Source of the DNA: a phage | Reading direction: 5' to 3' (one strand) | Assembly: GCA_024571205.1 (NCBI GenBank) | Contig: GCA_024571205.1_4523.1 | DNA length: 64,000 nt | In this document: piece after piece, positions 42 to 27,484 of the stretch | Layout of the letters: every line of letters starts with the position of its first letter | Numbering within the stretch: the first letter of the stretch is position 1 | Notes under the pieces: model-generated | What the model was told of the DNA's origin: nothing | Database searches by the model: none | The model's input: only the letters and a program-made list of their open reading frames with translations | Made by a program: the position numbers and the translations under genes

Positions 42-1202
42 ATGAATACTTTTAAAATCGGAACGAATTTTGATTTAGCTCTTCTTGATAAAATCGTAGA
101 GCTCAATAAAACCTATCCTAATAGCTTGATAAACGAAGTATATGGCTCTACAAGAGAAATGGCTTTTGTAGCAGCCAGACCTGATTTTAGGCTTCCTGAC
201 GTTGACAAAAAGATGTTAGAAGACTACGTTAAACGTTGTAACGAATTAGGTATTTGCTTTAACTATACACTCAACACGATAAATCCTGGTTCAAAAAGAG
301 AACTAGTTGAGTGGAAGAAGAAAGCTATTCAGGATTATGTTCAGTATCTTTGGTCAATAGGCGTATGGCGTATTACTATCGCTAACCCTGTTGTTATGGA
401 AATTGTTCGTGAAGTCAATAAAGATATTGAGATTGAAGTTTCAACAATTCTACATGTCGATGCTGTAACTCAAATCAAATACTTGCATGACCAATATAAC
501 ATCAAAAAAGTCTGTTGCGGAATTCATAAGAACCGTTCAGTTTCTTTCCTGAAGCGTGCAGCAGAGTTTTGCAATAAGAACAATATAATATTTGAAGTTC
601 TTGTAAATGAGTTCTGTTCTAATGCTGGTAAAGGGTATACAACACATTGTAGCTATCGTGACTCTTGCTATATTTTCCATAGTACTGATGTTACCGCTGA
701 TGATGCTAAATCCTTAAATGGATATCCAATGCAGCACTGTATTAAAGCTCGTGATACAGACCCATTTAACTGGCTGAGAACTCGTTTTGTTCGTCCTCAA
801 GATTTGAAACTTTATAATGATATTGGTATCACTCAATTCAAAGTTTCAGGACGTACAGGTAGCACAGACTACATTTTGAAAGTTCTTGAAGCATACGCTT
901 CTGAAAAGTTTGAAGGTAATTTGTTAGAACTGTGGAAGCCTTTAGAGACTATTTTCACTCTTGAAAATGAGACTGAGTTTTCACATACAGTAAATATTGA
1001 AACCTCTTTGTTAGATGGCTTTTTAGAAAAAAGGTGGTTCAGACATCCAGATTTTGATTGTGCTAATGAAATCTGTGGGTCAACGTGTACATATTGTGAA
1101 AGGTATTATAAACGTCAATTATCTAAAAACGGGTTAGCAGAAAACTCCATATCTATTATTGATATAACTAACTCTGATGACGCTTTGAGGTACCCTGAAT
1201 GA
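42..1202 (+). CDS. U32-family protein (peptidase U32 / Fe-S O2-independent hydroxylase family), 386 aa
   Basis: Long ORF; motifs YTLNT, ITIANPVVMEIVRE, IEIEVST and Cys-rich FEVLVNEFCS..HCS..SCY resemble the U32 TIM-barrel core (recalled E. coli YegQ/TrhP: VVVN..DPGLIMLVRE..EIFVHGALC); C-terminal CGSTCTYC. Only 41 nt upstream are in the window. Confidence 0.55.
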   Translation: MNTFKIGTNFDLALLDKIVELNKTYPNSLINEVYGSTREMAFVAARPDFRLPDVDKKMLEDYVKRCNELGICFNYTLNTINPGSKRELVEWKKKAIQDYVQYLWSIGVWRITIANPVVMEIVREVNKDIEIEVSTILHVDAVTQIKYLHDQYNIKKVCCGIHKNRSVSFLKRAAEFCNKNNIIFEVLVNEFCSNAGKGYTTHCSYRDSCYIFHSTDVTADDAKSLNGYPMQHCIKARDTDPFNWLRTRFVRPQDLKLYNDIGITQFKVSGRTGSTDYILKVLEAYASEKFEGNLLELWKPLETIFTLENETEFSHTVNIETSLLDGFLEKRWFRHPDFDCANEICGSTCTYCERYYKRQLSKNGLAENSISIIDITNSDDALRYPE

Positions 1203-1438
1203 TTTCTAGAAAAAGTTTTAATTATAAACTTAACGAAGAGATTTTGACTATGAAACTGAACACTAACGAACAAATTCTTAAAAAGGCCCTTATGGGCCTG
1301 TTTGAAACCAAAGCGGCTAAAGTGATTAAAGAACCTGTTCAATTGGAATACTACACTGATGCATTCCTTCATAGTGTTCTTGGAAGTATAGATTCTGAAG
1401 CTTTACGTTATATCAACATTGTCAAGAAATTCAAATAA
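1199..1438 (+). CDS. hypothetical protein, 79 aa
   Basis: ATGA start/stop overlap with upstream gene; soluble, no recognisable motif; internal GGCCC-TTAT-GGGCC hairpin at 1285-1298. Confidence 0.45.
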   Translation: MISRKSFNYKLNEEILTMKLNTNEQILKKALMGLFETKAAKVIKEPVQLEYYTDAFLHSVLGSIDSEALRYINIVKKFK

Positions 1439-1480: not shown

Positions 1481-2197
1481 ATGGGAAAACATAACACAAT
1501 GAAATATATCAAAGCCGCAGATTTTCAAACCGCATTTAAAGCAGTCAATCGTGAAATTTTAGAAAACCCCGAATTCGTAACTGATTCTCGTATTGGACGT
1601 TGTAATGAAATTGGGTCTATGACAGTAGTTGTTGACACTCCATCATCATTCAAAATGACCGACCCACGTATTAACCGCATCTCTTATGAATATGCCGAAG
1701 ACTTCTGGAAGTTTATGATTTCTGGTGGTACCAACGCAGAAGAAGCGTTTAAGGCATATCCTAATGTCGCTAAATTTATTTCTAAACCAAAATCAGATGT
1801 TTTGCCGGCGAACTTCAACACTTTCTATGGCCCTCGCATTGCGGCCCAATTACCAACTCTTCTAAAAGAACTTAAAGAAAAACCTAACTCTCGAAGAGTT
1901 GTGTTCCAAATTCTAGAAAGTTCTGATCAGGCTTTGCTTGATTCGGACGAAACACTTGAATATCCATGTACTGACTCAGTAACTTATTATATTCGTGATG
2001 GTAAGCTTTATACCCACTGTCATATGCGTTCTCAGAACTGTGCTGTTGTTATGCAGTTGGATTTTTATCTCCAAGGAAAATTACTTCATTATATCGCTAA
2101 CGAATGCGGTGTAGAAGTTGGTGATTATACTCATACCATGGTAAGCGCCCATGTGTTTGAACGTGATTTTGATTATGTTAAAGGATTCCTTGACTAA
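1481..2197 (+). CDS. ThyA-superfamily deoxypyrimidylate hydroxymethylase-like protein (gene 42 candidate, dCMP hydroxymethylase)
   Basis: 238 aa; NSRR, catalytic-type Cys in EYPCTDSVTYYIRDGK, RSQN and an Asp (QLD) at the position that is Asn in thymidylate synthase and Asp in dCMP hydroxymethylase; sits upstream of uvsX as gene 42 does in T4. Confidence 0.7.
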   Translation: MGKHNTMKYIKAADFQTAFKAVNREILENPEFVTDSRIGRCNEIGSMTVVVDTPSSFKMTDPRINRISYEYAEDFWKFMISGGTNAEEAFKAYPNVAKFISKPKSDVLPANFNTFYGPRIAAQLPTLLKELKEKPNSRRVVFQILESSDQALLDSDETLEYPCTDSVTYYIRDGKLYTHCHMRSQNCAVVMQLDFYLQGKLLHYIANECGVEVGDYTHTMVSAHVFERDFDYVKGFLD

Positions 2198-3096
2198 TGG
2201 CTATTTTCCGCGTACCAATCTTGAGTATGCGGTCTTATGAAACTGGACAGTATGCTATCCTTAAGGATGGCAACTTCCAACTTCATTTGCACCGTGCTAA
2301 TCCGGGTGATGTGATTACATATCCACGTAATGCATCTGATATTAAAGAATGCGAACGTCTTTTCCCAGAATTTAAGTTTGTTCCATTATGGTATAAAGAT
2401 AACGCGTATAACACTCGTAAATATTTCTGGACTGAAAATGAATTTGTGGTTGATTCATTAATTGATTATTATGATTGTGATTTTCTAATCACAGATATCA
2501 CTGGTTATGGCGGCGCTTTTGATGTAGAATTCAATTTCAATATCACTGCAGACCCTAATAAACCACGTTTTTATATTGACGAATTCTTAAAAACCGATAT
2601 GTTGTCAGTTAATCGTTCACTTCAAACTACCGTGTTGAATGAACGTCAAAAAGAAGTGCTGGTTAACGCAGGTGCAGATGGTAATAAGATTATCGTAACT
2701 CAGAAAGTTATACGTCCTTCCATCATGCAGCGTCTTGTAGGTGATTTGGCTCCTATTCATCTAGATGGTATTTTTCATCCATTTCGAATTAGTGACCCAT
2801 GTTATCGTTTTGAACAAGTGGTTGAATGTGCAATTCAATTAGGTCAACCGCTTTATATAACCGATCCAAATAATAGCTTCGACAGAAATAAGTATCCTGA
2901 AGAAGCGCTGATTCGAATTTTTAAACCAACTAAAACTGAGTACTATCAAATTCTTAAAGGACGCCCGAAGATTCAATATTTCGAAAATCCTGAAGAAGTA
3001 TTCCATCCAGGTCTTGGTGAGTTCATCTACTTTAATGCTTTAATTTCTTCACCATATAATATACCTAAATACGAAGATGTCGTAATCGAGGAATAA
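2197..3096 (+). CDS. hypothetical protein, 299 aa (in the slot where T4 has beta-glucosyltransferase)
   Basis: Start overlaps upstream stop (TAATG); no motif recognised. Confidence 0.6.
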   Translation: MAIFRVPILSMRSYETGQYAILKDGNFQLHLHRANPGDVITYPRNASDIKECERLFPEFKFVPLWYKDNAYNTRKYFWTENEFVVDSLIDYYDCDFLITDITGYGGAFDVEFNFNITADPNKPRFYIDEFLKTDMLSVNRSLQTTVLNERQKEVLVNAGADGNKIIVTQKVIRPSIMQRLVGDLAPIHLDGIFHPFRISDPCYRFEQVVECAIQLGQPLYITDPNNSFDRNKYPEEALIRIFKPTKTEYYQILKGRPKIQYFENPEEVFHPGLGEFIYFNALISSPYNIPKYEDVVIEE

Positions 3097-3097
3097 A

Positions 3098-3646
3098 ATG
3101 GCTAAAATTATTTTAGTAGACGGCCCAGATAATGCTGGTAAAACAACTTTCATTAATGACATAATGGAAATTAGTGAAAGATATGTAAAGATTGATTTTC
3201 CTAAACGAACAGTTGATGGACGTTTCGATGTTAAGTCTCGAAATGAAGTTGGCTGTTTCGAAACGATGTTGAATTATTTAGACCCTACTAAGATTTATCT
3301 GTTAGACCGTGGATATATTAGTAACTGGGTTTATGGACGTATTCGGCAAGATGCGGACTCTGTTCTTGATGTTTATGAACAGGACTATGTTCGTCTTTGC
3401 CAAAACCATGATGTGTTCACAATTATTTTAACACGTAATGAAATGACTGAAAGTTTTGAAGACGACCTTATTACTTTGTCTTCATTCGGTTTTAATACAG
3501 TCATTTCACATTTTGAAGAGTTTGCAATTCATAACAAAATCCAAACGTATCAATTACTTAATCATGATGGTGCTAACAAAATTATAGGATTTAATGCAAG
3601 CGAACGTAATGGTTTGATTACAGAAATCATCAAATGGGCTCGTTAA
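3098..3646 (+). CDS. P-loop kinase, thymidylate-kinase-like (nucleotide/nucleoside kinase family)
   Basis: Walker A GPDNAGKTT near N-terminus; LLDRGYISNWVYG resembles the TMPK DRx..S..Y motif; 182 aa. Confidence 0.6.
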   Translation: MAKIILVDGPDNAGKTTFINDIMEISERYVKIDFPKRTVDGRFDVKSRNEVGCFETMLNYLDPTKIYLLDRGYISNWVYGRIRQDADSVLDVYEQDYVRLCQNHDVFTIILTRNEMTESFEDDLITLSSFGFNTVISHFEEFAIHNKIQTYQLLNHDGANKIIGFNASERNGLITEIIKWAR

Positions 3647-3744: not shown

Positions 3745-4917
3745 ATGTCTGATTTAAAATCTCGTCTGATTAAAGCTTCTACTTCTAAAATGACTGCAGA
3801 CTTGACTAAGTCTAAGCTGTTTAATAATCGTGATGAAGTCCCTACTCGTATTCCGATGTTGAATATCGCACTAGGTGGTGCTCTGAATGCAGGATTGCAA
3901 TCAGGCTTAACTATTTTTGCTGCTCCTTCTAAACACTTTAAAACATTGTTTGGGCTGACTATGGTTGCAGCGTATATGAAGAAATATAAAGATGCAATCT
4001 GTTTGTTTTATGACTCGGAATTCGGTGCTTCAGAATCTTATTTTCGTTCAATGGGTGTTGATTTAGACCGTGTAGTTCATACTCCGATTCAATCTGTAGA
4101 ACAACTTAAAGTTGATATGACTAATCAGCTTGACGCTATTGAACGCGGTGATAAAGTTATTATCTTTATCGATTCAATCGGTAATACTGCATCTAAGAAA
4201 GAAACCGAAGATGCATTGAACGAGAAAGTCGTAGGTGATATGTCTCGTGCTAAGGCACTTAAATCTCTGTTCCGTATTGTGACTCCTTATCTGACTATTA
4301 AAGATATTCCGTGTGTTGCAATCAACCATACAGCAATGGAAATCGGCGGACTATATCCTAAAGAGATTATGGGTGGTGGTACAGGTATTCTTTACTCTGC
4401 TAACACTGTATTCTTTATCTCTAAACGTCAGGTTAAAGAAGGTACAGAATTGACCGGTTATGACTTCACGTTGAAAGCAGAAAAATCTCGTACAGTTAAA
4501 GAGAAATCTACTTTCCCAATCACGGTTAATTTTGACGGCGGTATCGATCCATTCAGTGGCTTGTTAGAAATGGCAACTGAAATTGGATTTGTTGTTAAGC
4601 CTAAAGCTGGTTGGTATGCTCGTGAATTCCTTGACGAAGAAACAGGTGAAATGATTCGTGAAGAGAAATCGTGGCGTGCTAAAGCTACTGATTGTGTAGA
4701 ATTCTGGGGACCGTTGTTTAAACACAAACCTTTCCGAGATGCAATTGAAACTAAATATAAACTAGGCGCTATCTCTTCTATTAAAGAAGTTGATGACGCT
4801 GTTAACGACCTTATTAATTGCAAAGCAACAACTAAAGTTCCGGTTAAAGCTTCTGATGCTCCGTCTGCAGCAGATATTGAAAACGACCTTGACGAAATGG
4901 AAGATTTCGATGAATAA
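3745..4917 (+). CDS. uvsX: UvsX RecA-like recombinase
   Basis: 390 aa; RecA-fold ATPase motifs and acidic C-terminal tail; T4 gene order uvsX-40-41. Confidence 0.92.
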   Translation: MSDLKSRLIKASTSKMTADLTKSKLFNNRDEVPTRIPMLNIALGGALNAGLQSGLTIFAAPSKHFKTLFGLTMVAAYMKKYKDAICLFYDSEFGASESYFRSMGVDLDRVVHTPIQSVEQLKVDMTNQLDAIERGDKVIIFIDSIGNTASKKETEDALNEKVVGDMSRAKALKSLFRIVTPYLTIKDIPCVAINHTAMEIGGLYPKEIMGGGTGILYSANTVFFISKRQVKEGTELTGYDFTLKAEKSRTVKEKSTFPITVNFDGGIDPFSGLLEMATEIGFVVKPKAGWYAREFLDEETGEMIREEKSWRAKATDCVEFWGPLFKHKPFRDAIETKYKLGAISSIKEVDDAVNDLINCKATTKVPVKASDAPSAADIENDLDEMEDFDE

Positions 4918-11605: not shown

Positions 11606-11693
11606 AATATCTCCTTAGTTACCTATTATTTATTACGCTTTATAAAATTAATGTTAGAATTAACTCTCTTATACTGAATTGAAAGGAAAAATA

Positions 11694-12215
11694 ATGGCGC
11701 ACTTTAATGAATGTTCACAACTTATTTCTGGTGTTGATAAAGCAGAAGAAGCTTATTTTAATGCTCTGATTCACGAAGATAAAGACCCACTGCAGGTAAT
11801 GCTTGATATGCAGAAATCTTTACAGGTTCGTCTGGCAAATGACAAGCCTGAACATAACAAACATCCTGATGAATTGGCTACTGCTGGTGATGTTGTTGAT
11901 TGGCTGCGTAATCAGAAAGATTATATTGATGATGAATTCCGTGAACTGCTGACTTCACTTGGTGGTATGAGCAATGGTGAAAAAGCCGCTAGCAGTGTAT
12001 GGAAGCCATGGAAAGCACAACATGCTGAATATCGAAATCGTCGTATCGATGAACTGTCTCCTGAAGACCAGCTTGAAATTAAATTTGAAATGATTGATAT
12101 TCTGCATTTCGTTCTAAATATGTTCCAAGGTCTTGGTCTTTCTGCTGAAGAAATCTTTAAACTTTACTACTTGAAAAACCAACACAACTTTGAACGTCAG
12201 GATAATGGTTACTAA
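11694..12215 (+). CDS. 56: gp56 dCTPase/dUTPase (dCTP pyrophosphatase)
   Basis: MAHFNEC start after RBS AGGAAA; MazG-like motifs; matches recalled T4 gp56. Confidence 0.85.
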   Translation: MAHFNECSQLISGVDKAEEAYFNALIHEDKDPLQVMLDMQKSLQVRLANDKPEHNKHPDELATAGDVVDWLRNQKDYIDDEFRELLTSLGGMSNGEKAASSVWKPWKAQHAEYRNRRIDELSPEDQLEIKFEMIDILHFVLNMFQGLGLSAEEIFKLYYLKNQHNFERQDNGY

Positions 12216-21941: not shown

Positions 21942-21959
21942 GGGCTTCGGCCCTTTTTG
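21941..21959 (+). terminator. intrinsic terminator (UUCG tetraloop)
   Basis: aGGGCttcgGCCC followed by TTTTT. Confidence 0.75.
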
Positions 21960-22004: not shown

Positions 22005-23822
22005 ATGATTAAAAATGAAATTAAGGTATTGTCAGATGTAGAACATATTAAGAAACGTAGTGGTATGTATATTGGTTCTTCTGCTAAAGAAGCCCACGAG
22101 CGTTTTTTGTTTGGTAAATATCAACAAGTTGAATATGTTCCTGGCCTGGTTAAATTAATCGATGAGATTATTGACAACTCGGTTGATGAAGCTATTCGTA
22201 CATCATTTAAGTTTGCAAATAAAATTGATGTGCAAATTAAAAATAATCAAGTTTCGGTGGAAGATAACGGACGTGGTATTCCTCAAGGTTTAGTTACCGA
22301 CCAAACAGGTGAACAAATTCCTGGGCCTGTAGCAGCCTGGACTATTCCAAAGGCCGGTGGTAACTTTGGTGATGACTCTGAACGCAAGACTGGTGGTATG
22401 AACGGCGTCGGGAGTAGTTTAACTAATATCTTCTCTACGTTGTTTACAGGCATCACGTCAGATGGCGAAAATGAAATCACTGTTAACTGTTCAAACGGAA
22501 TGGAAAACAAATCATGGTCTTCTAAGAAATCTAAAGGTAAAGGCACTAAAGTAATCTTCACTCCTGATTTCACTTCATTTGAAGAGCATAATTTATCTCA
22601 AATTTATTTAGATATTACTTTAGATCGACTTCAAACATTGGCAGTCGTTTATCCTGATATCAAGTTCACATTTAATGGTAAAAAGGTCGATGGTAATTTT
22701 AAACGATTTGCTAAACAATTTGGTGAAGATAACATCATTCAAGAAAATGATAAAGTCTCTATAGCATTCACAACATCACCAGATGGCTTCCGTCATTTAA
22801 CTTATGTGAATAACATCCATACTAAAAATGGTGGTCATCATGTTGAATGTGTAATGGATGATATCTGCGAACATCTTTTGCCAGGTATTAAAAAGAAATA
22901 TAAGGGTATTGAAGTCACTAAAGCTCGTGTTAAAGAATGCCTCACAATGTTGATGTTTATTCGAGACATGAGCAACATGCGTTTTGATTCTCAGACTAAA
23001 GAACGTTTAACGTCAACGTATGGTGATATTCGTAATCATATCCAATTAGATGCTAAGAAAATTGCCCAGGCACTTCTTAAAAACGAAGCCTTGATTATGC
23101 CTATTGTTGAAGCAGCATTAGCTCGTAAATTGGCAGCAGAAAAGGCTGCAGAAACTAAAGCAGCTAAAAAGGCAACTAAAGCTAAGGTTCATAAGCATAT
23201 TAAAGCTAACCAATGTGGTAAAGATGCAGATACGACATTGTTCTTAACAGAAGGTGATTCGGCAATTGGATATCTCATTGATGTTCGTGACCGTGAACTA
23301 CACGGTGGATTCCCATTACGTGGTAAGGTGATGAATAGCTGGGGTATGTCATATGCTGATATGATGAAGAACAAAGAGTTATTCGATATCTGTGCTATCA
23401 CAGGTCTTATTCTTGGTGAAAAGGCAGAGAATACGAACTATCGTAATATTGCAATTATGACCGATGCCGATCATGACGGTCTTGGAAGTATCTATCCGGC
23501 TTTGCTTGCTTTCTTTAGTAATTGGCCTGAATTGTTTGAACAAGGACGTATTCGCTTTGTTAAAACACCTGTAATTATTGCACAAATTGGCAAAACTCAA
23601 AAATGGTTTTATACTGTAGCTGAGTATGAAGAAGTTAAAGATACACTGCCTAAGCATAGTATTCGATACATCAAGGGATTAGGCTCCCTTGAAAAGTCAG
23701 AGTATCGTGAAATGATTCAGAACCCTGTGTACGACGTAGTTAAACTTCCTGAAAATTGGAAAGAACTCTTTGAAATGTTGTTGGGTGATGATTCAGAACT
23801 TCGTAAAGAATGGATGTCCTAA
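22005..23822 (+). CDS. 39: DNA topoisomerase II large (ATPase) subunit, fused gene 39 (39 plus 60 equivalent)
   Basis: 605 aa; GHKL ATPase and TOPRIM motifs; single uninterrupted ORF. Confidence 0.9.
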   Translation: MIKNEIKVLSDVEHIKKRSGMYIGSSAKEAHERFLFGKYQQVEYVPGLVKLIDEIIDNSVDEAIRTSFKFANKIDVQIKNNQVSVEDNGRGIPQGLVTDQTGEQIPGPVAAWTIPKAGGNFGDDSERKTGGMNGVGSSLTNIFSTLFTGITSDGENEITVNCSNGMENKSWSSKKSKGKGTKVIFTPDFTSFEEHNLSQIYLDITLDRLQTLAVVYPDIKFTFNGKKVDGNFKRFAKQFGEDNIIQENDKVSIAFTTSPDGFRHLTYVNNIHTKNGGHHVECVMDDICEHLLPGIKKKYKGIEVTKARVKECLTMLMFIRDMSNMRFDSQTKERLTSTYGDIRNHIQLDAKKIAQALLKNEALIMPIVEAALARKLAAEKAAETKAAKKATKAKVHKHIKANQCGKDADTTLFLTEGDSAIGYLIDVRDRELHGGFPLRGKVMNSWGMSYADMMKNKELFDICAITGLILGEKAENTNYRNIAIMTDADHDGLGSIYPALLAFFSNWPELFEQGRIRFVKTPVIIAQIGKTQKWFYTVAEYEEVKDTLPKHSIRYIKGLGSLEKSEYREMIQNPVYDVVKLPENWKELFEMLLGDDSELRKEWMS

Positions 23823-23850
23823 GCTCCTTTAGGAGCTTCATTTTAATTTT
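23822..23850 (+). terminator. possible terminator hairpin after gene 39
   Basis: AGCTCC-ttta-GGAGCT followed by tcattttaatttt. Confidence 0.45.
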
Positions 23851-23864
23851 AATAAGGCTTAATT

Positions 23865-24965
23865 ATGAAAGTTATGTTTATCCCATCTCGTGCAGTCCCA
23901 TTTAATCCTGAACGTGTACAAGGTGGTCTTGAAGCAGTACATTTAAATGTGTTGAAATATTTAGTTTCTATCGGTGCCGATATTGATTATATCGGTTTTG
24001 ATAATGACACATTTGGTGATTGGAAGGTTAATCATCATCCTGTTGGTCATCTGACTAAATTCAGTCTAGGTATGAGTTATACTATGGCTCGTAAGATTGT
24101 TGAACTAGCCGGCATTAATGAGTACGATTTCGTTGTTACAATGGAACCGACCAAACTAACCGTTCAGGCAATTAAAGACGCAGGTCTCTCTAAAGTTCAT
24201 AAGAATTTTATGGCAACACCATTTGAACCGGTATCTCGTGGTATTGTTCAAATTTGGGACCAGACTATTCAAATTCATAAGAACGGTGGTAAGAGTTATG
24301 CTCCTACTAAAGCCTTCCGTGAATTTGAACGCAAATATTGTTATATGACTTCAGGTCTGACTGACAAAATTGATTATGATTATTGGCGAGCAAATCCGTT
24401 GTTTGAAGCCGAAGATTATCCGGTTATTTGTTTGAATGAGAAACCTGAAGTTCTTCCGGCGACTGATCTGATTATTAGTGCACAACGTTATGACACTAAA
24501 ATGCGTCGTACTGATGTTGCTCTTGAAGCGATTAAAGCACTAGGCGAAAATGGTGCAGGATACTGTCCTAGTAAATGGGCACCACCGGCTAAGTATCCTG
24601 TTATTATTGATGCTCCACACAGTGAAATCATGGAACGTCTTAAAACAGCTAAAGCACTTATCAATACGTGTCCTGACACGGGTACGGTAGAGAATAGTTC
24701 TATTGAAGCCATCTCTAAAGGTGTCCCTGTGATTCAGTTAGTTTTTAAGGATTATCCGCACGCGACATTCGAATATGACCCAGATACTGTGCGTGTAGAA
24801 ATTGATTCCTCTACTCCTAAGAAAGAAGTAGTTGCGCTTTACACAAAAGCTGTATTAGAATTCACTGACACATACGAAGCTCGAGTTAAACGTGCTGAAG
24901 CCGTATGGAAGAAGTATAACAGAGATGCAGTTGTTGCGATGTGGGATAAAATCTTCACAGCGTAA
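23865..24965 (+). CDS. GT-B fold glycosyltransferase-like protein, 366 aa
   Basis: C-terminal GTVENSSIEAISKGVPVI resembles the GT-B E..(7)..E / EA..G.PVI donor-binding motif; N-terminal MKVMFIPS..GGLE; inserted between gene 39 and rIIA. Confidence 0.6.
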   Translation: MKVMFIPSRAVPFNPERVQGGLEAVHLNVLKYLVSIGADIDYIGFDNDTFGDWKVNHHPVGHLTKFSLGMSYTMARKIVELAGINEYDFVVTMEPTKLTVQAIKDAGLSKVHKNFMATPFEPVSRGIVQIWDQTIQIHKNGGKSYAPTKAFREFERKYCYMTSGLTDKIDYDYWRANPLFEAEDYPVICLNEKPEVLPATDLIISAQRYDTKMRRTDVALEAIKALGENGAGYCPSKWAPPAKYPVIIDAPHSEIMERLKTAKALINTCPDTGTVENSSIEAISKGVPVIQLVFKDYPHATFEYDPDTVRVEIDSSTPKKEVVALYTKAVLEFTDTYEARVKRAEAVWKKYNRDAVVAMWDKIFTA

Positions 24966-24981
24966 ATCCTGAATCGCCTGA

Positions 24982-25032
24982 GGCACTATTACACATAAGA
25001 TGATAGATTATATGGTCTTTAGTAATAGTGCC
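24982..25032 (+). promoter_or_regulatory. inverted repeat enclosing a -10-like element upstream of the rIIA.1-like ORF
   Basis: ggcactattac (24982-24992) / gtaatagtgcc (25022-25032) flanking gatagattatat. Confidence 0.35.
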
Positions 25033-25057
25033 CTAGGAATCTACTGAAGAGAATATT

Positions 25058-25258
25058 ATGAGAACGTATAACGTGGACTTGGAACTTTTTGATAAAGCAG
25101 TGCTCCGGGAATTCCGGCTTATCCAAAGATTTTTTGATATCGAATCAGCAGAGTCCTTTAAAGAACGCTTTAAAGAAATTCGATATAAAATACAAACCGA
25201 TACAGCTACTAAAGAAGAACTTCTTGAAGTAGCAGAAATTTTTAAACGTAACTTGTGA
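25058..25258 (+). CDS. hypothetical protein, 66 aa (rIIA.1 position)
   Basis: Small ORF immediately upstream of rIIA. Confidence 0.5.
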   Translation: MRTYNVDLELFDKAVLREFRLIQRFFDIESAESFKERFKEIRYKIQTDTATKEELLEVAEIFKRNL

Positions 25259-25270
25259 TGAGAGAAAAAT

Positions 25271-27484
25271 ATGATTATTGAAACGGCTAAAGAAACGATT
25301 ATTGGTTCAGGCGGTAAGAGCACAGCATTCACTATTCAAGGCAATAGCAAAGTTTATAAGATTTTGTCTAATGACCTTTATACAAACAAAGAATTGGCTT
25401 GTGTACGTGAATTAATTACAAACTGTATCGATGGACAAATTCTTAACGGTTGCACTGATAAGTTTATTGTTCAGGCTCCAGGTCGTTTAGACCCACGTTT
25501 TGTAGTTCGAGACTTTGGTCCTGGTATGAGTGATTTCACCATTAGAGGTAATGACGAAGAGCCAGGAATCTATAACTCATATTTTGCTTCAACTAAAACA
25601 TCGAGTAACGATTTCATCGGTGGATTCGGACTCGGCTCTAAAGCTCCGCTAGCATATACCGATACGTTTAACCTTACGTCTTATCACAATGGTGAAGTTC
25701 GTGGTTACGTAATCTACCAAGATGACACGGGTCCACAAATTAAGCCGACCTTTGTAGATAAGATGGGTCCTGATGACCGTACGGGTGTAGAAGTAGTCGT
25801 ACCGGTTAACCCGGAAGATTTTGAAAAGTTTGCATCCGAAATTGCATATGTTATGCGTCCTCTAGGTGATATTGCAGAAGTTCGTGGTGTTAAAGATATC
25901 AAATACTTCCCGGAATTTGACGATGTATATTTGGCCAAGGAAGCTCCATGGGGTGAACGTGGTAATATCATGGCTGTTTATGGTGGTATTGTATATCCGA
26001 TCGGAAGTGTTATTAAAGAACAAACATGGATGATGACGCGATGCACTACAGCTTATATTAAATTCCCTATGGGTGAACTAGATGTAGCCCCGTCTCGTGA
26101 AGCATTGTCATTTGATAAACGTACAGTAGCAAATATCCATAAACGTGTTGCAGAAATCGATGCTAAATTGTTCGCTGAAGATTCTAAGAAATGGATTGAT
26201 TGTAAATACCCACGCCATGTGTTCCGTGAAATTGATTCTCTTGGCTATACCGCTCGTAAATACATGGAAAAGGCCGGGTCCAATATTGAATCACTGAAAT
26301 ACTCTAAAGAACAACTAACTTATTCTGAGTTGTACAAACGTTTTAAAATGGGGCCTGAGTGGTGTAATCTTGGCGTCGTATACGATATCGTTGAATCCCC
26401 TCGTCTTCGTCGTATTCGTGAAAGTGGTAGCTCAACGACAACCATTTCAATTAACAGTTTGATTGGCATTAACATTAAAAACGTTGAAATTGTTATTGAC
26501 GACGTTAAGGGACGCGTTCCATTAATGCGAGCTCTTAATTCAATTGAAATGTCTAAAGACGAGGTTAAATTAACTGGTAAAGTTCCACGCGGTTTTGGTA
26601 AAAGTGTACTATTCGTTGACCCTACAGACGAAGATGCAATGAAACTTCTGGAACGCCTTAAAGTTATCTTTGATGGCGACAACATTAACATGTACAAGAC
26701 TTCAGAGCTTTTACAAATCGTTAAGCCATGGATTGAAGTCAGGAAACGGACTAATGAGCCTCGTCCTAAATCGCCAAGTGCTCATCGATTCTTTAAGAAT
26801 GAAAACGATGTTTGGGTATCAGAAGACCTCTTTATTTCGGCAAGTGAAGCAGATGAAATCCAAGGTTATGCTATAGTTCGTAATCGTTCTAATGCTGAAT
26901 GTCTTGACGCAGATAAAGGTTGGTTGAACTATGATTCTAATTTCTTGACTCGTATTGCCGATTTGTCAGGTATTAAAGAGTTCACTGTAGTTCGCCCACA
27001 GATTGCTAAGAAAGTTCGTAAACTTGGTGAAGTAGAATGTTTGTTTGAAAAATCAATTAACGACTATATTATGCTAATCGATAAAGTAGATTATGATGAG
27101 TATGTATCACCAAGTCGTAGAGCTCAACCTTATTTGAATCATATTACTCGTAATGAAGAGCTTAACTTCCTTAGTAAGTATTTTAGCTCTAAAAACAAAG
27201 AAATCAGTAAAGATTTTGCAAAACTCTCAACAGTAAATAATCGTTGGGGATGGAATCGATTCTCAGGTGCTACTAACAGAGAACTGAATAAAAAGTTAGA
27301 ACTATGTGCTAAAATTTTCGATAAGCTTAAAGATAACGCTTACGATAATGATGATAAAATGGTTATTGAATTCGAAACCAATTATCATATTGTGTCAGAA
27401 TACATGGGACGACGTGGTACTCTTTCTAAAGAACAGGTCGCTCAAATCGTTAAATTCATGAAGGCCGTGGAAGCGGCCAAATAA
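25271..27484 (+). CDS. rIIA: rIIA protein
   Basis: 737 aa; N-terminus MIIETAKETIIGSGGKS..VRELITNCIDG (GHKL-like), matches recalled T4 rIIA. Confidence 0.9.
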   Translation: MIIETAKETIIGSGGKSTAFTIQGNSKVYKILSNDLYTNKELACVRELITNCIDGQILNGCTDKFIVQAPGRLDPRFVVRDFGPGMSDFTIRGNDEEPGIYNSYFASTKTSSNDFIGGFGLGSKAPLAYTDTFNLTSYHNGEVRGYVIYQDDTGPQIKPTFVDKMGPDDRTGVEVVVPVNPEDFEKFASEIAYVMRPLGDIAEVRGVKDIKYFPEFDDVYLAKEAPWGERGNIMAVYGGIVYPIGSVIKEQTWMMTRCTTAYIKFPMGELDVAPSREALSFDKRTVANIHKRVAEIDAKLFAEDSKKWIDCKYPRHVFREIDSLGYTARKYMEKAGSNIESLKYSKEQLTYSELYKRFKMGPEWCNLGVVYDIVESPRLRRIRESGSSTTTISINSLIGINIKNVEIVIDDVKGRVPLMRALNSIEMSKDEVKLTGKVPRGFGKSVLFVDPTDEDAMKLLERLKVIFDGDNINMYKTSELLQIVKPWIEVRKRTNEPRPKSPSAHRFFKNENDVWVSEDLFISASEADEIQGYAIVRNRSNAECLDADKGWLNYDSNFLTRIADLSGIKEFTVVRPQIAKKVRKLGEVECLFEKSINDYIMLIDKVDYDEYVSPSRRAQPYLNHITRNEELNFLSKYFSSKNKEISKDFAKLSTVNNRWGWNRFSGATNRELNKKLELCAKIFDKLKDNAYDNDDKMVIEFETNYHIVSEYMGRRGTLSKEQVAQIVKFMKAVEAAK

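Follow-up and report, generated by a model that had tools for sequence, protein, structure and literature searches.

The window, which is the whole stretch of 64,000 nucleotides of phage DNA that was analysed, derives from a Mosigvirus, and its early region (1..27.5 kb) is collinear gene for gene, in reverse orientation, with positions 1 to ~27.6 kb of RB69 (NC_004928). The ORF list of the window contained a 366-aa open reading frame (ORF) with an ATG start, whose exact interval is given in Table 1 together with those of its neighbours and of the modification genes elsewhere in the window. Pfam and PHROG assignments revealed a fused gene for the large subunit of topoisomerase II upstream of the ORF, and rIIA.1, rIIA, and rIIB downstream of it, in agreement with an earlier sequence-only reading that had located the ORF between gene 39 and rIIA. 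Full-length conservation in phages and a crystallised protein with 98% identity demonstrate that this is a real gene and not a chance ORF.

Table 1. Coordinates of the features discussed in the text (positions in the window)
Feature	Position	Strand	Basis and remarks
U32-peptidase-like protein (RB69 p050), cluster edge	42..1202	+	Pfam Peptidase_U32; 99.2% identity to RB69p050
Small ORF (RB69 p049)	1199..1438		
ThyA homolog, 5-hydroxy-dCMP synthase (RB69 p048/gp48)	1481..2197	+	Pfam Thymidylat_synt; 98.7% identity to gp48
299-aa ORF (RB69 p047+p046 fused)	2197..3096	+	97-100% identical to RB69 p047 and p046
Thymidylate-kinase-like nucleotide kinase, 182 aa (RB69 p045)	3098..3646	+	PHROG 761; 98.4% identity to RB69p045
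uvsX (RB69 p044)	3745..4917		
gp56-type dCTPase / NTP pyrophosphohydrolase, supplies dCMP, removes dCTP	11679..12215	+	PHROG 173; position corresponds to RB69p028 (gene 56)
Fused topoisomerase II large subunit gene 39 (unsplit 39+60 form), 605 aa	22005..23822		Pfam DNA_gyraseB/HATPase_c/Toprim, PHROG 543; upstream of the 366-aa ORF
Terminator-like hairpin, AAGCTCC-TTTA-GGAGCTT with T-rich tail	23821..23838	+	Predicted, consensus match; between the gene 39 stop and the ribosome-binding site of the 366-aa ORF
366-aa ORF	23865..24965	+	ATG start; ORF list of the window
rIIA.1	25058..25258		Pfam T4_RIIA1; downstream of the 366-aa ORF
rIIA	25271..27484		Pfam and PHROG; downstream of the 366-aa ORF

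For transcription, neither a T4 late nor a MotA-type promoter was found directly upstream of the 366-aa ORF, and the nearest MotA-like box lies at 21956, upstream of gene 39, suggesting that transcripts of gene 39 probably run on through the predicted hairpin into this gene. The GC3 of the ORF (0.275) is like that of its neighbours and its overall GC content is unremarkable, so a recent foreign acquisition was rejected as detectable. No tRNA genes were found in the 64-kb window. The description of the gene as inserted at this site, given in the sequence-only reading, is fair in that Dhakavirus JS98, which carries the modification cluster, has an rIIA.1-39 gap of just 588 bp with an unrelated 111-aa ORF, and a search of this gap for a relic of the 366-aa gene found none. 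The accompanying picture of T4 was incomplete, as T4 carries not gene 60 alone but genes 60, 60.1, and mobA between rIIA.1 and gene 39. Taken together, the JS98 gap and the T4 genes at the same junction indicate that the gene 39/rIIA.1 junction is a plastic site.

Identity, fold and donor-site residues of the 366-aa protein

Sequence comparison revealed that the 366-aa protein is 99.2% identical to RB69 ORF003c (RB69p003, gp3, NP_861693), with only 3 of 366 residues differing (E16/D, N85/H, and T327/I), positions 16 and 327 being outside the conserved columns. The link to the RB69 transferase gene beside rIIA, which had been drawn in the sequence-only reading, is thereby established as one between orthologs. 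In addition, a PDB sequence search recovered 9iqz/9ir0 at 98% identity (phmmer, E=2.6e-248), and a full-length match was obtained to PHROG 8302 (E=1.6e-222). Foldseek matches gave the titles of these two entries, released 2025-07-16, as 'phage HY126 glycosyltransferase' (9iqz) and 'phage HY126 glycosyltransferase with UDP' (9ir0), and on the strength of the latter title the window's protein can be expected to bind UDP like its 98%-identical ortholog. RB69 ORF003c and the HY126 enzyme have in common with the window's gene the length of 366 aa, the gene 39/rIIA.1 position, and the accompanying cluster. The gene is already known as the RB69 ORF003c/HY126-type transferase with a solved structure, and the present study adds annotation, not a new gene. 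Public records mostly label the protein of this family 'hypothetical', with one 'ATP-binding protein', and some Acinetobacter phage records label a family member 'putative DNA alpha-glucosyltransferase'; these labels could be updated.

The GT-B glycosyltransferase fold proposed earlier was borne out by a structure model built from an 11-sequence MSA (pLDDT 91), which superimposed on 9iqz with a TM of 0.97 (range 0.95-0.97 with the HY126 structures). The model and structure matches displayed two Rossmann-like domains and the inter-domain cleft that define GT-B, and the expected Rossmann-like N-terminus was present in GT4-like form (MKVMFIPSRAVPFNPERVQGGLEAV...). After the HY126 enzyme, all strong structural matches were GT-B enzymes, mostly of the retaining GT4 type, including sucrose-phosphate synthase 6kih (score 25.4, rank 2), BshA (24.9, rank 3), and PimA-family enzymes and WaaG (20-23), with MshA recovered via Foldseek only; T4 AGT (18.1, rank 34) and T4 BGT (15.4, rank 59) followed. 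For sequence profiles, no match of the 366-aa protein was found in Pfam at E<=1, including GT4/Glycos_transf_1, or in NCBIfam at E<=10, and distant family members gave only sub-threshold GT4-conflict matches. Alignment of the family profile with a Pfam-positive GT4 protein by hhalign extended over the full length with 98.2% probability.

The C-terminal string GTVENSSIEAISKGVPVI, which had been taken for a GT-B donor-binding motif, is present at residues 273-290, but it does not form a canonical EX7E. E281, within 'EAISKGVPVI', corresponds to the canonical second Glu, whereas T272 stands opposite the first Glu of the GT4 partner in the hhalign alignment, and the family-invariant E276 is off-register, lying 5 residues and not 8 before E281. 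The missing first Glu was counted against the assignment of the protein as second transferase. In the family alignment, E281, G286, P288, and Q207-R208-D210-R214 show little or no variation. N267-T268-C269 and H299-A300-T301 are likewise invariant, and together with Q207, R208, D210, and R214 they cluster at the GT-B nucleotide-sugar site.

The bacterial retaining GT4 enzymes (PimA, BshA, MshA, WaaG, and sucrose-phosphate synthase) are only 10-15% identical to the 366-aa protein, and the family differs from them in the two acidic positions just described and in its proposed acceptor, which is DNA-linked. T4 AGT (GT72) and BGT (GT63) are structurally farther than these bacterial enzymes and have no detectable sequence similarity to the 366-aa protein (blastp with word size 2 and no filters; best E 1.5 for agt and 13 for bgt), in line with the earlier view that the gene is distinct from both. 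Moreover, the T4 enzymes, which act on DNA and are the closest functional analogues, put glucose from UDP-glucose on the hydroxymethyl oxygen of hmC, whereas the pathway of the 366-aa enzyme is one of 5-hydroxycytosine and arabinofuranose; unlike AGT and BGT, it probably glycosylates a sugar and not the base.

The modification cluster and the acceptor base

RB69-type phages have been reported to make 5-hydroxycytosine (5hoC) with arabinose ether-linked at C5 (PMC13326640, PMC13390438), and the original assignment of ara-hmC to RB69 (PMC6024577) was explicitly called erroneous by PMC13390438. The window carries the corresponding synthase gene. Alignment with T4 gp42 revealed that the ThyA homolog has 'RSQN' where gp42 has 'RSND', i.e., Asn at the E. 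coli D169 position (D169N), and 'QLD' with Asp at the N177 position (N177D). The D169N signature has been proposed as diagnostic for 5hodCMP synthase among ThyA homologs (PMC13326640 sec. 28), and RB69 gp48 was shown experimentally to make 5hodCMP (Lee et al., PMC13326640). Near-identical structures of the ThyA homolog (9iqc/9ir2/9iqu) belong to the same PDB deposition series as the HY126 transferase. Because the window's ThyA homolog combines the D169N signature with near-identity to the validated gp48 (Table 1), the acceptor base in this phage is, judging from its genes, 5-hydroxycytosine and not hmC. The sequence-only reading was thus mistaken in naming hmC as the acceptor, and correct in expecting a sugar other than glucose, which is arabinose (PMC6024577, PMC13326640).

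For the supply of precursors, the true start of the gp56-type gene probably lies a few codons downstream of the TTG that opens the listed ORF. The UDP-arabinose genes of RB69 (p051, p052:53, and p055, at 27.7-30.6 kb in RB69), a set consisting of an A5P isomerase, a bifunctional kinase/uridylyltransferase, and a HAD phosphatase, map by collinearity just beyond the left edge of the window, which begins inside the p050 region. The p050 protein itself was tabled as a putative 'sugar or heterocycle reductase' (PMC13326640 Table 1). The orphan genes at 2197-3646, previously suggested as the donor-synthesis route, correspond instead to RB69 p047+p046, a candidate first transferase, and to the thymidylate-kinase-like p045. 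The 299-aa ORF (RB69 gp46:47) has been put forward in print as a candidate for the arabinosyltransferase that attaches the first, base-proximal (alpha) sugar (PMC13326640 Table 1), and the 182-aa kinase gene always adjoins it in related loci. No glycosyltransferase signal was found in the 299-aa family by profile search against PDB, where no entry of any kind was similar, by Pfam on 24 members, or by hhalign against the 366-aa family, and TH1_063, its homolog in Shewanella phage Thanatos, showed UDP-xylose pyrophosphorylase activity in vitro (PMC12838424). For these two reasons, the division of labour between the 299-aa and 366-aa proteins is not secure.

Distribution of the two families and the number of sugars

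The tblastn search for the 366-aa gene matched 212 phage records (coverage >=80% in 210), comprising ~156 Mosigvirus records with one copy each, 55 records of Acinetobacter T4-like phages with two copies, and 1 stray record. The 299-aa gene was detected in 349 phage records from many genera, including Thanatos, and in 136 protein clusters. The 366-aa family is narrow, with 5 clusters in a word-indexed search of 5.8 billion proteins, 12 members when 1.84 billion representatives were scanned exhaustively by HMM (7 of them beyond the word search), and 7 loci in IMG/VR. Thanatos lacks it, as do ~137 further records with the 299-aa gene; among the phages that have retained synthase, 299-aa gene, and kinase but not this family are Dhakavirus and Klebsiella, Enterobacter, Serratia, Proteus, and Yersinia phages. 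Among Mosigvirus records at >=95% identity, ~156 carry the 366-aa gene and 154 the 299-aa gene, these being totals that are not record-matched.

In each of the six Acinetobacter-type loci whose flanks were long enough, the genes came in the order ThyA-like gene, 299-aa ORF, kinase, two tandem family members, and gp40/41. The members of this pair (DLP3 gp77/gp76; Maestro 078/077) belong to the same family and pathway as the window's protein, are full-length, and have all of its invariant residues. They form a tandem duplicate in the cluster directly after the kinase gene, whereas the window's gene is a single copy ~20 kb away. The two paralogs are 56% identical to each other and 41-43% identical to the window's protein; as they are closer to each other than to the latter, the duplication is lineage-specific and function cannot be transferred one to one from DLP3 gp77. 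One metagenomic T4-like contig had a family member beside dsbA and ligase, and a 37%-identical member, P0009, was found in a structural/late block (M23 peptidase, gp13-like, DUF4815, and terminase), away from any ThyA-like gene on its 21-kb contig.

Previous studies have characterised the DNA of several of these phages. The DNA of Thanatos is reported to be mono-arabinosylated, and the phage to have one ara-GT (PMC13326640 sec. 26). In RB69 DNA, both mono-arabinosyl and beta-D-Araf-(1->3)-alpha-D-Araf-5-hydroxy-dC occur, and DLP3 adds a third, beta-1,5-linked Araf (PMC13326640 sec. 23). The Mosigviruses RB69 (PMC13326640), NP (PMC13390438), and Bas46/47 (PMC12923530) are di-arabinosylated (mono- plus di-Ara), and the Acinetobacter phages DLP3 and Maestro are tri-arabinosylated. 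Copy number of the 366-aa family therefore tracks sugar number, with 0, 1, and 2 copies corresponding to 1, 2, and 3 sugars, over the handful of phages for which DNA chemistry has been measured. An order of action has also been published, in which the in-cluster glycosyltransferase (RB69 gp46:47) acts first and is followed by the enzyme encoded between rIIA and the topoisomerase gene (PMC13326640, PMC13390438). Furthermore, DLP3 gp76 and gp77, whose places in the cluster match those of the family members Maestro 077 and 078, together extend RB69 DNA to tri-Ara in vitro with UDP-Araf, each being inactive alone (PMC13326640 sec. 26); they are the only enzymes marked as experimentally confirmed in PMC13326640. 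Addition of a third arabinose to RB69 DNA by this pair supports a chain-extending role on DNA-linked arabinose. A deletion of Bas46 Aat is mentioned in PMC13216743.

Proposed second-sugar transfer and the alternatives

The 366-aa enzyme is most likely a UDP-sugar-dependent GT-B glycosyltransferase of the RB69 ORF003c/HY126 type that adds the second (beta-1,3) arabinofuranose in the arabinosyl-5-hydroxycytosine pathway of Mosigviruses. Gene identity, fold, and pathway context are established, as is UDP binding through the title of the ortholog's PDB entry; we infer the second-sugar step and the DNA-linked acceptor from the phyletic pattern and the published proposal. Where the sequence-only reading saw the one DNA sugar transferase of the phage, there are two candidates, and the 366-aa enzyme most likely acts second, as the one that extends the chain. 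In the proposed sequence of events, the gp56 dCTPase and the ThyA-like 5hodCMP synthase would convert dC to 5-hydroxy-dC at the nucleotide level, and after replication a first transferase, for which the 299-aa ORF is the published candidate, would put alpha-D-arabinofuranose on the C5 oxygen. The soluble 366-aa enzyme would then move a second D-arabinofuranose from UDP-Araf to O3 of the first, giving beta-D-Araf-(1->3)-alpha-D-Araf-5hodC, the form of most RB69-type cytosines. As the structural neighbours are retaining enzymes and the added sugar ends up beta-linked, general glycobiology suggests a retaining mechanism with UDP-D-Araf in the 1,2-cis (beta) form as donor. The thicker sugar coat may alter the set of restriction, CRISPR, and glycosylase defences to which the DNA is exposed.

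Alternatively, the 366-aa enzyme could itself be the first, base-proximal arabinosyltransferase onto modified cytosine, with the 299-aa ORF serving another role such as sugar-nucleotide synthesis; this is also what the sequence-only reading amounts to once hmC is replaced by 5hoC. ORF003c was indeed proposed as the arabinosyltransferase by Thomas et al. 2018 (PMC6024577), the title 'glycosyltransferase' in the HY126 deposition series is carried by the 366-aa protein only, and both the lack of sequence similarity of the 299-aa family to any glycosyltransferase and the pyrophosphorylase activity of TH1_063 are consistent with this assignment. However, Thanatos DNA is pentosylated/arabinosylated (PMC13326640, PMC12838424) in a phage that lacks the 366-aa family, so another enzyme must perform the first transfer there. 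The ~137 further records that keep the synthase, the 299-aa gene, and the kinase without this family, the small number of its members in the exhaustive scan, and the scaling of its copy number with sugar number likewise argue against a first-transferase role, which is thus considered unlikely.

It is quite improbable that the 366-aa enzyme is an obligate structural or sequential partner of the other transferase, or that it acts on 5hodCMP/5hodCTP before replication. The joint requirement for gp76 and gp77 in DLP3 would fit an obligate partnership, but Mosigviruses have one family member, ~20 kb from the other candidate glycosyltransferase, with no hint of an obligate complex. The DLP3 pair used virion DNA as substrate, and the action of T4 AGT and BGT on DNA also speaks against a nucleotide acceptor. 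That the physiological acceptor is not DNA at all, e.g., a virion or host glycoconjugate, is hardly tenable, because in spite of the late-block location of P0009 and of nearest structural neighbours that glycosylate lipids, small molecules, and polysaccharides, T4-like phages with enough flank have the gene beside or co-occurring with the 5hoC cluster (as in all the Acinetobacter-type loci above), the Mosigvirus record counts of the two genes nearly coincide, and the paralog pair works on DNA in vitro (PMC13326640).

Arabinosylated 5-hydroxycytosine, a hypermodification of phage DNA that was resolved only recently, changes how susceptible the DNA is to restriction enzymes, CRISPR-Cas, DNA glycosylases, and type IV systems. 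As Mosigviruses are common phage-therapy candidates, knowing the gene that sets sugar number would help host-range prediction and phage engineering, for which the corrections made here are of use, namely 5hoC in place of hmC as the base, the 366-aa enzyme as the probable second transferase, and the orphan genes as a candidate first transferase and a kinase.

Members of the 366-aa family were located at the gene 39/rIIA.1 junction in Mosigviruses, in tandem pairs within the cluster in Acinetobacter phages, beside dsbA/ligase, and in a structural block. As a tentative idea, the family might be a small self-contained, horizontally mobile module for chain extension, entering varied plastic regions and stepping phages from mono- to di- to tri-arabinosylation as host defences change. 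The structural-block member could mark a use outside the 5hoC pathway.

Gene integrity and functional label of the 299-aa family

The 299-aa gene beside the ThyA-like 5hodCMP synthase gene was present in the window as one uninterrupted ORF, whereas the RB69 reference record gives the same gene as two ORFs, p047 and p046. The intact ORF of the window is thus independent evidence for the published interpretation of the split in RB69 as a sequencing error. For the 299-aa family (the window ORF and its homologs, alignment A3), searches against Pfam, a PDB profile search and an hhalign comparison with the 366-aa GT-B family all failed to reveal sequence-level likeness to any glycosyltransferase. 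In addition, TH1_063, the homolog in Thanatos, has been reported to act as a UDP-xylose pyrophosphorylase in vitro (PMC12838424). Taken with the lack of glycosyltransferase similarity, this report renders the published label of first arabinosyltransferase insecure for the family.

Table. Coordinates of the features considered in the window and comparison loci
Feature	Locus	Coordinates	Identity	Setting
299-aa ORF	window	2197..3096 (+)		
Terminator-like hairpin	window	23821..23838		directly 3' of the gene 39 stop
11-bp inverted repeat	window	~24981..25034		spacer between the 366-aa ORF and rIIA.1
rIIA.1–gene 39 gap, 588 bp	L004 (Dhakavirus JS98)	2437..3024		
Second 366-aa family copy, partial	L010 (Acinetobacter phage Acj9-like)	8846..9412	35% over ~190 aa	
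P0010, diverged 366-aa family member	L012	3040..4224	34%	short T4-like contig
P0009, 366-aa family member	L014	10001..11140	37%	21-kb metagenomic contig

Relatives of the 366-aa glycosyltransferase

Two family members were found in metagenomic contigs. P0009 was located in a structural/late block with genes for an M23 peptidase, a gp13-like protein, a DUF4815 protein and the large terminase; the ThyA-like, 299-aa and kinase genes were all absent from its vicinity on the contig, and P0009 may serve outside the context of the known cluster. P0010 adjoined the dsbA and DNA ligase genes, indicating a third distinct insertion site of the family. Within the phage collection, the sole match beyond Mosigvirus and Acinetobacter phages was one record with a name starting 'Tegunavirus', which carried a homolog of the window's 366-aa ORF at below 60% identity. 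The second family copy in the Acj9-like phage matched only in part, consistent with a paralog previously described as split or degraded (PMC6024577). Nearly all public records list homologs of the 366-aa ORF as 'hypothetical'; one homolog is named 'ATP-binding protein' and several in Acinetobacter phages 'putative DNA alpha-glucosyltransferase'; the evidence now available is at odds with both names.

The rIIA.1–gene 39 junction and flanking signals

In JS98, the gap between rIIA.1 and gene 39 contained a 111-aa ORF that lacks an annotation; it runs on the same strand as the genes and is unrelated to the 366-aa ORF of the window. A search for T4 late and MotA-type promoters directly upstream of the latter found none. 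The two flanks of the ORF carried a terminator-like hairpin on the gene 39 side and, towards rIIA.1, an inverted repeat whose arms, GGCACTATTAC ... GTAATAGTGCC, enclose a loop of ~32 nt.
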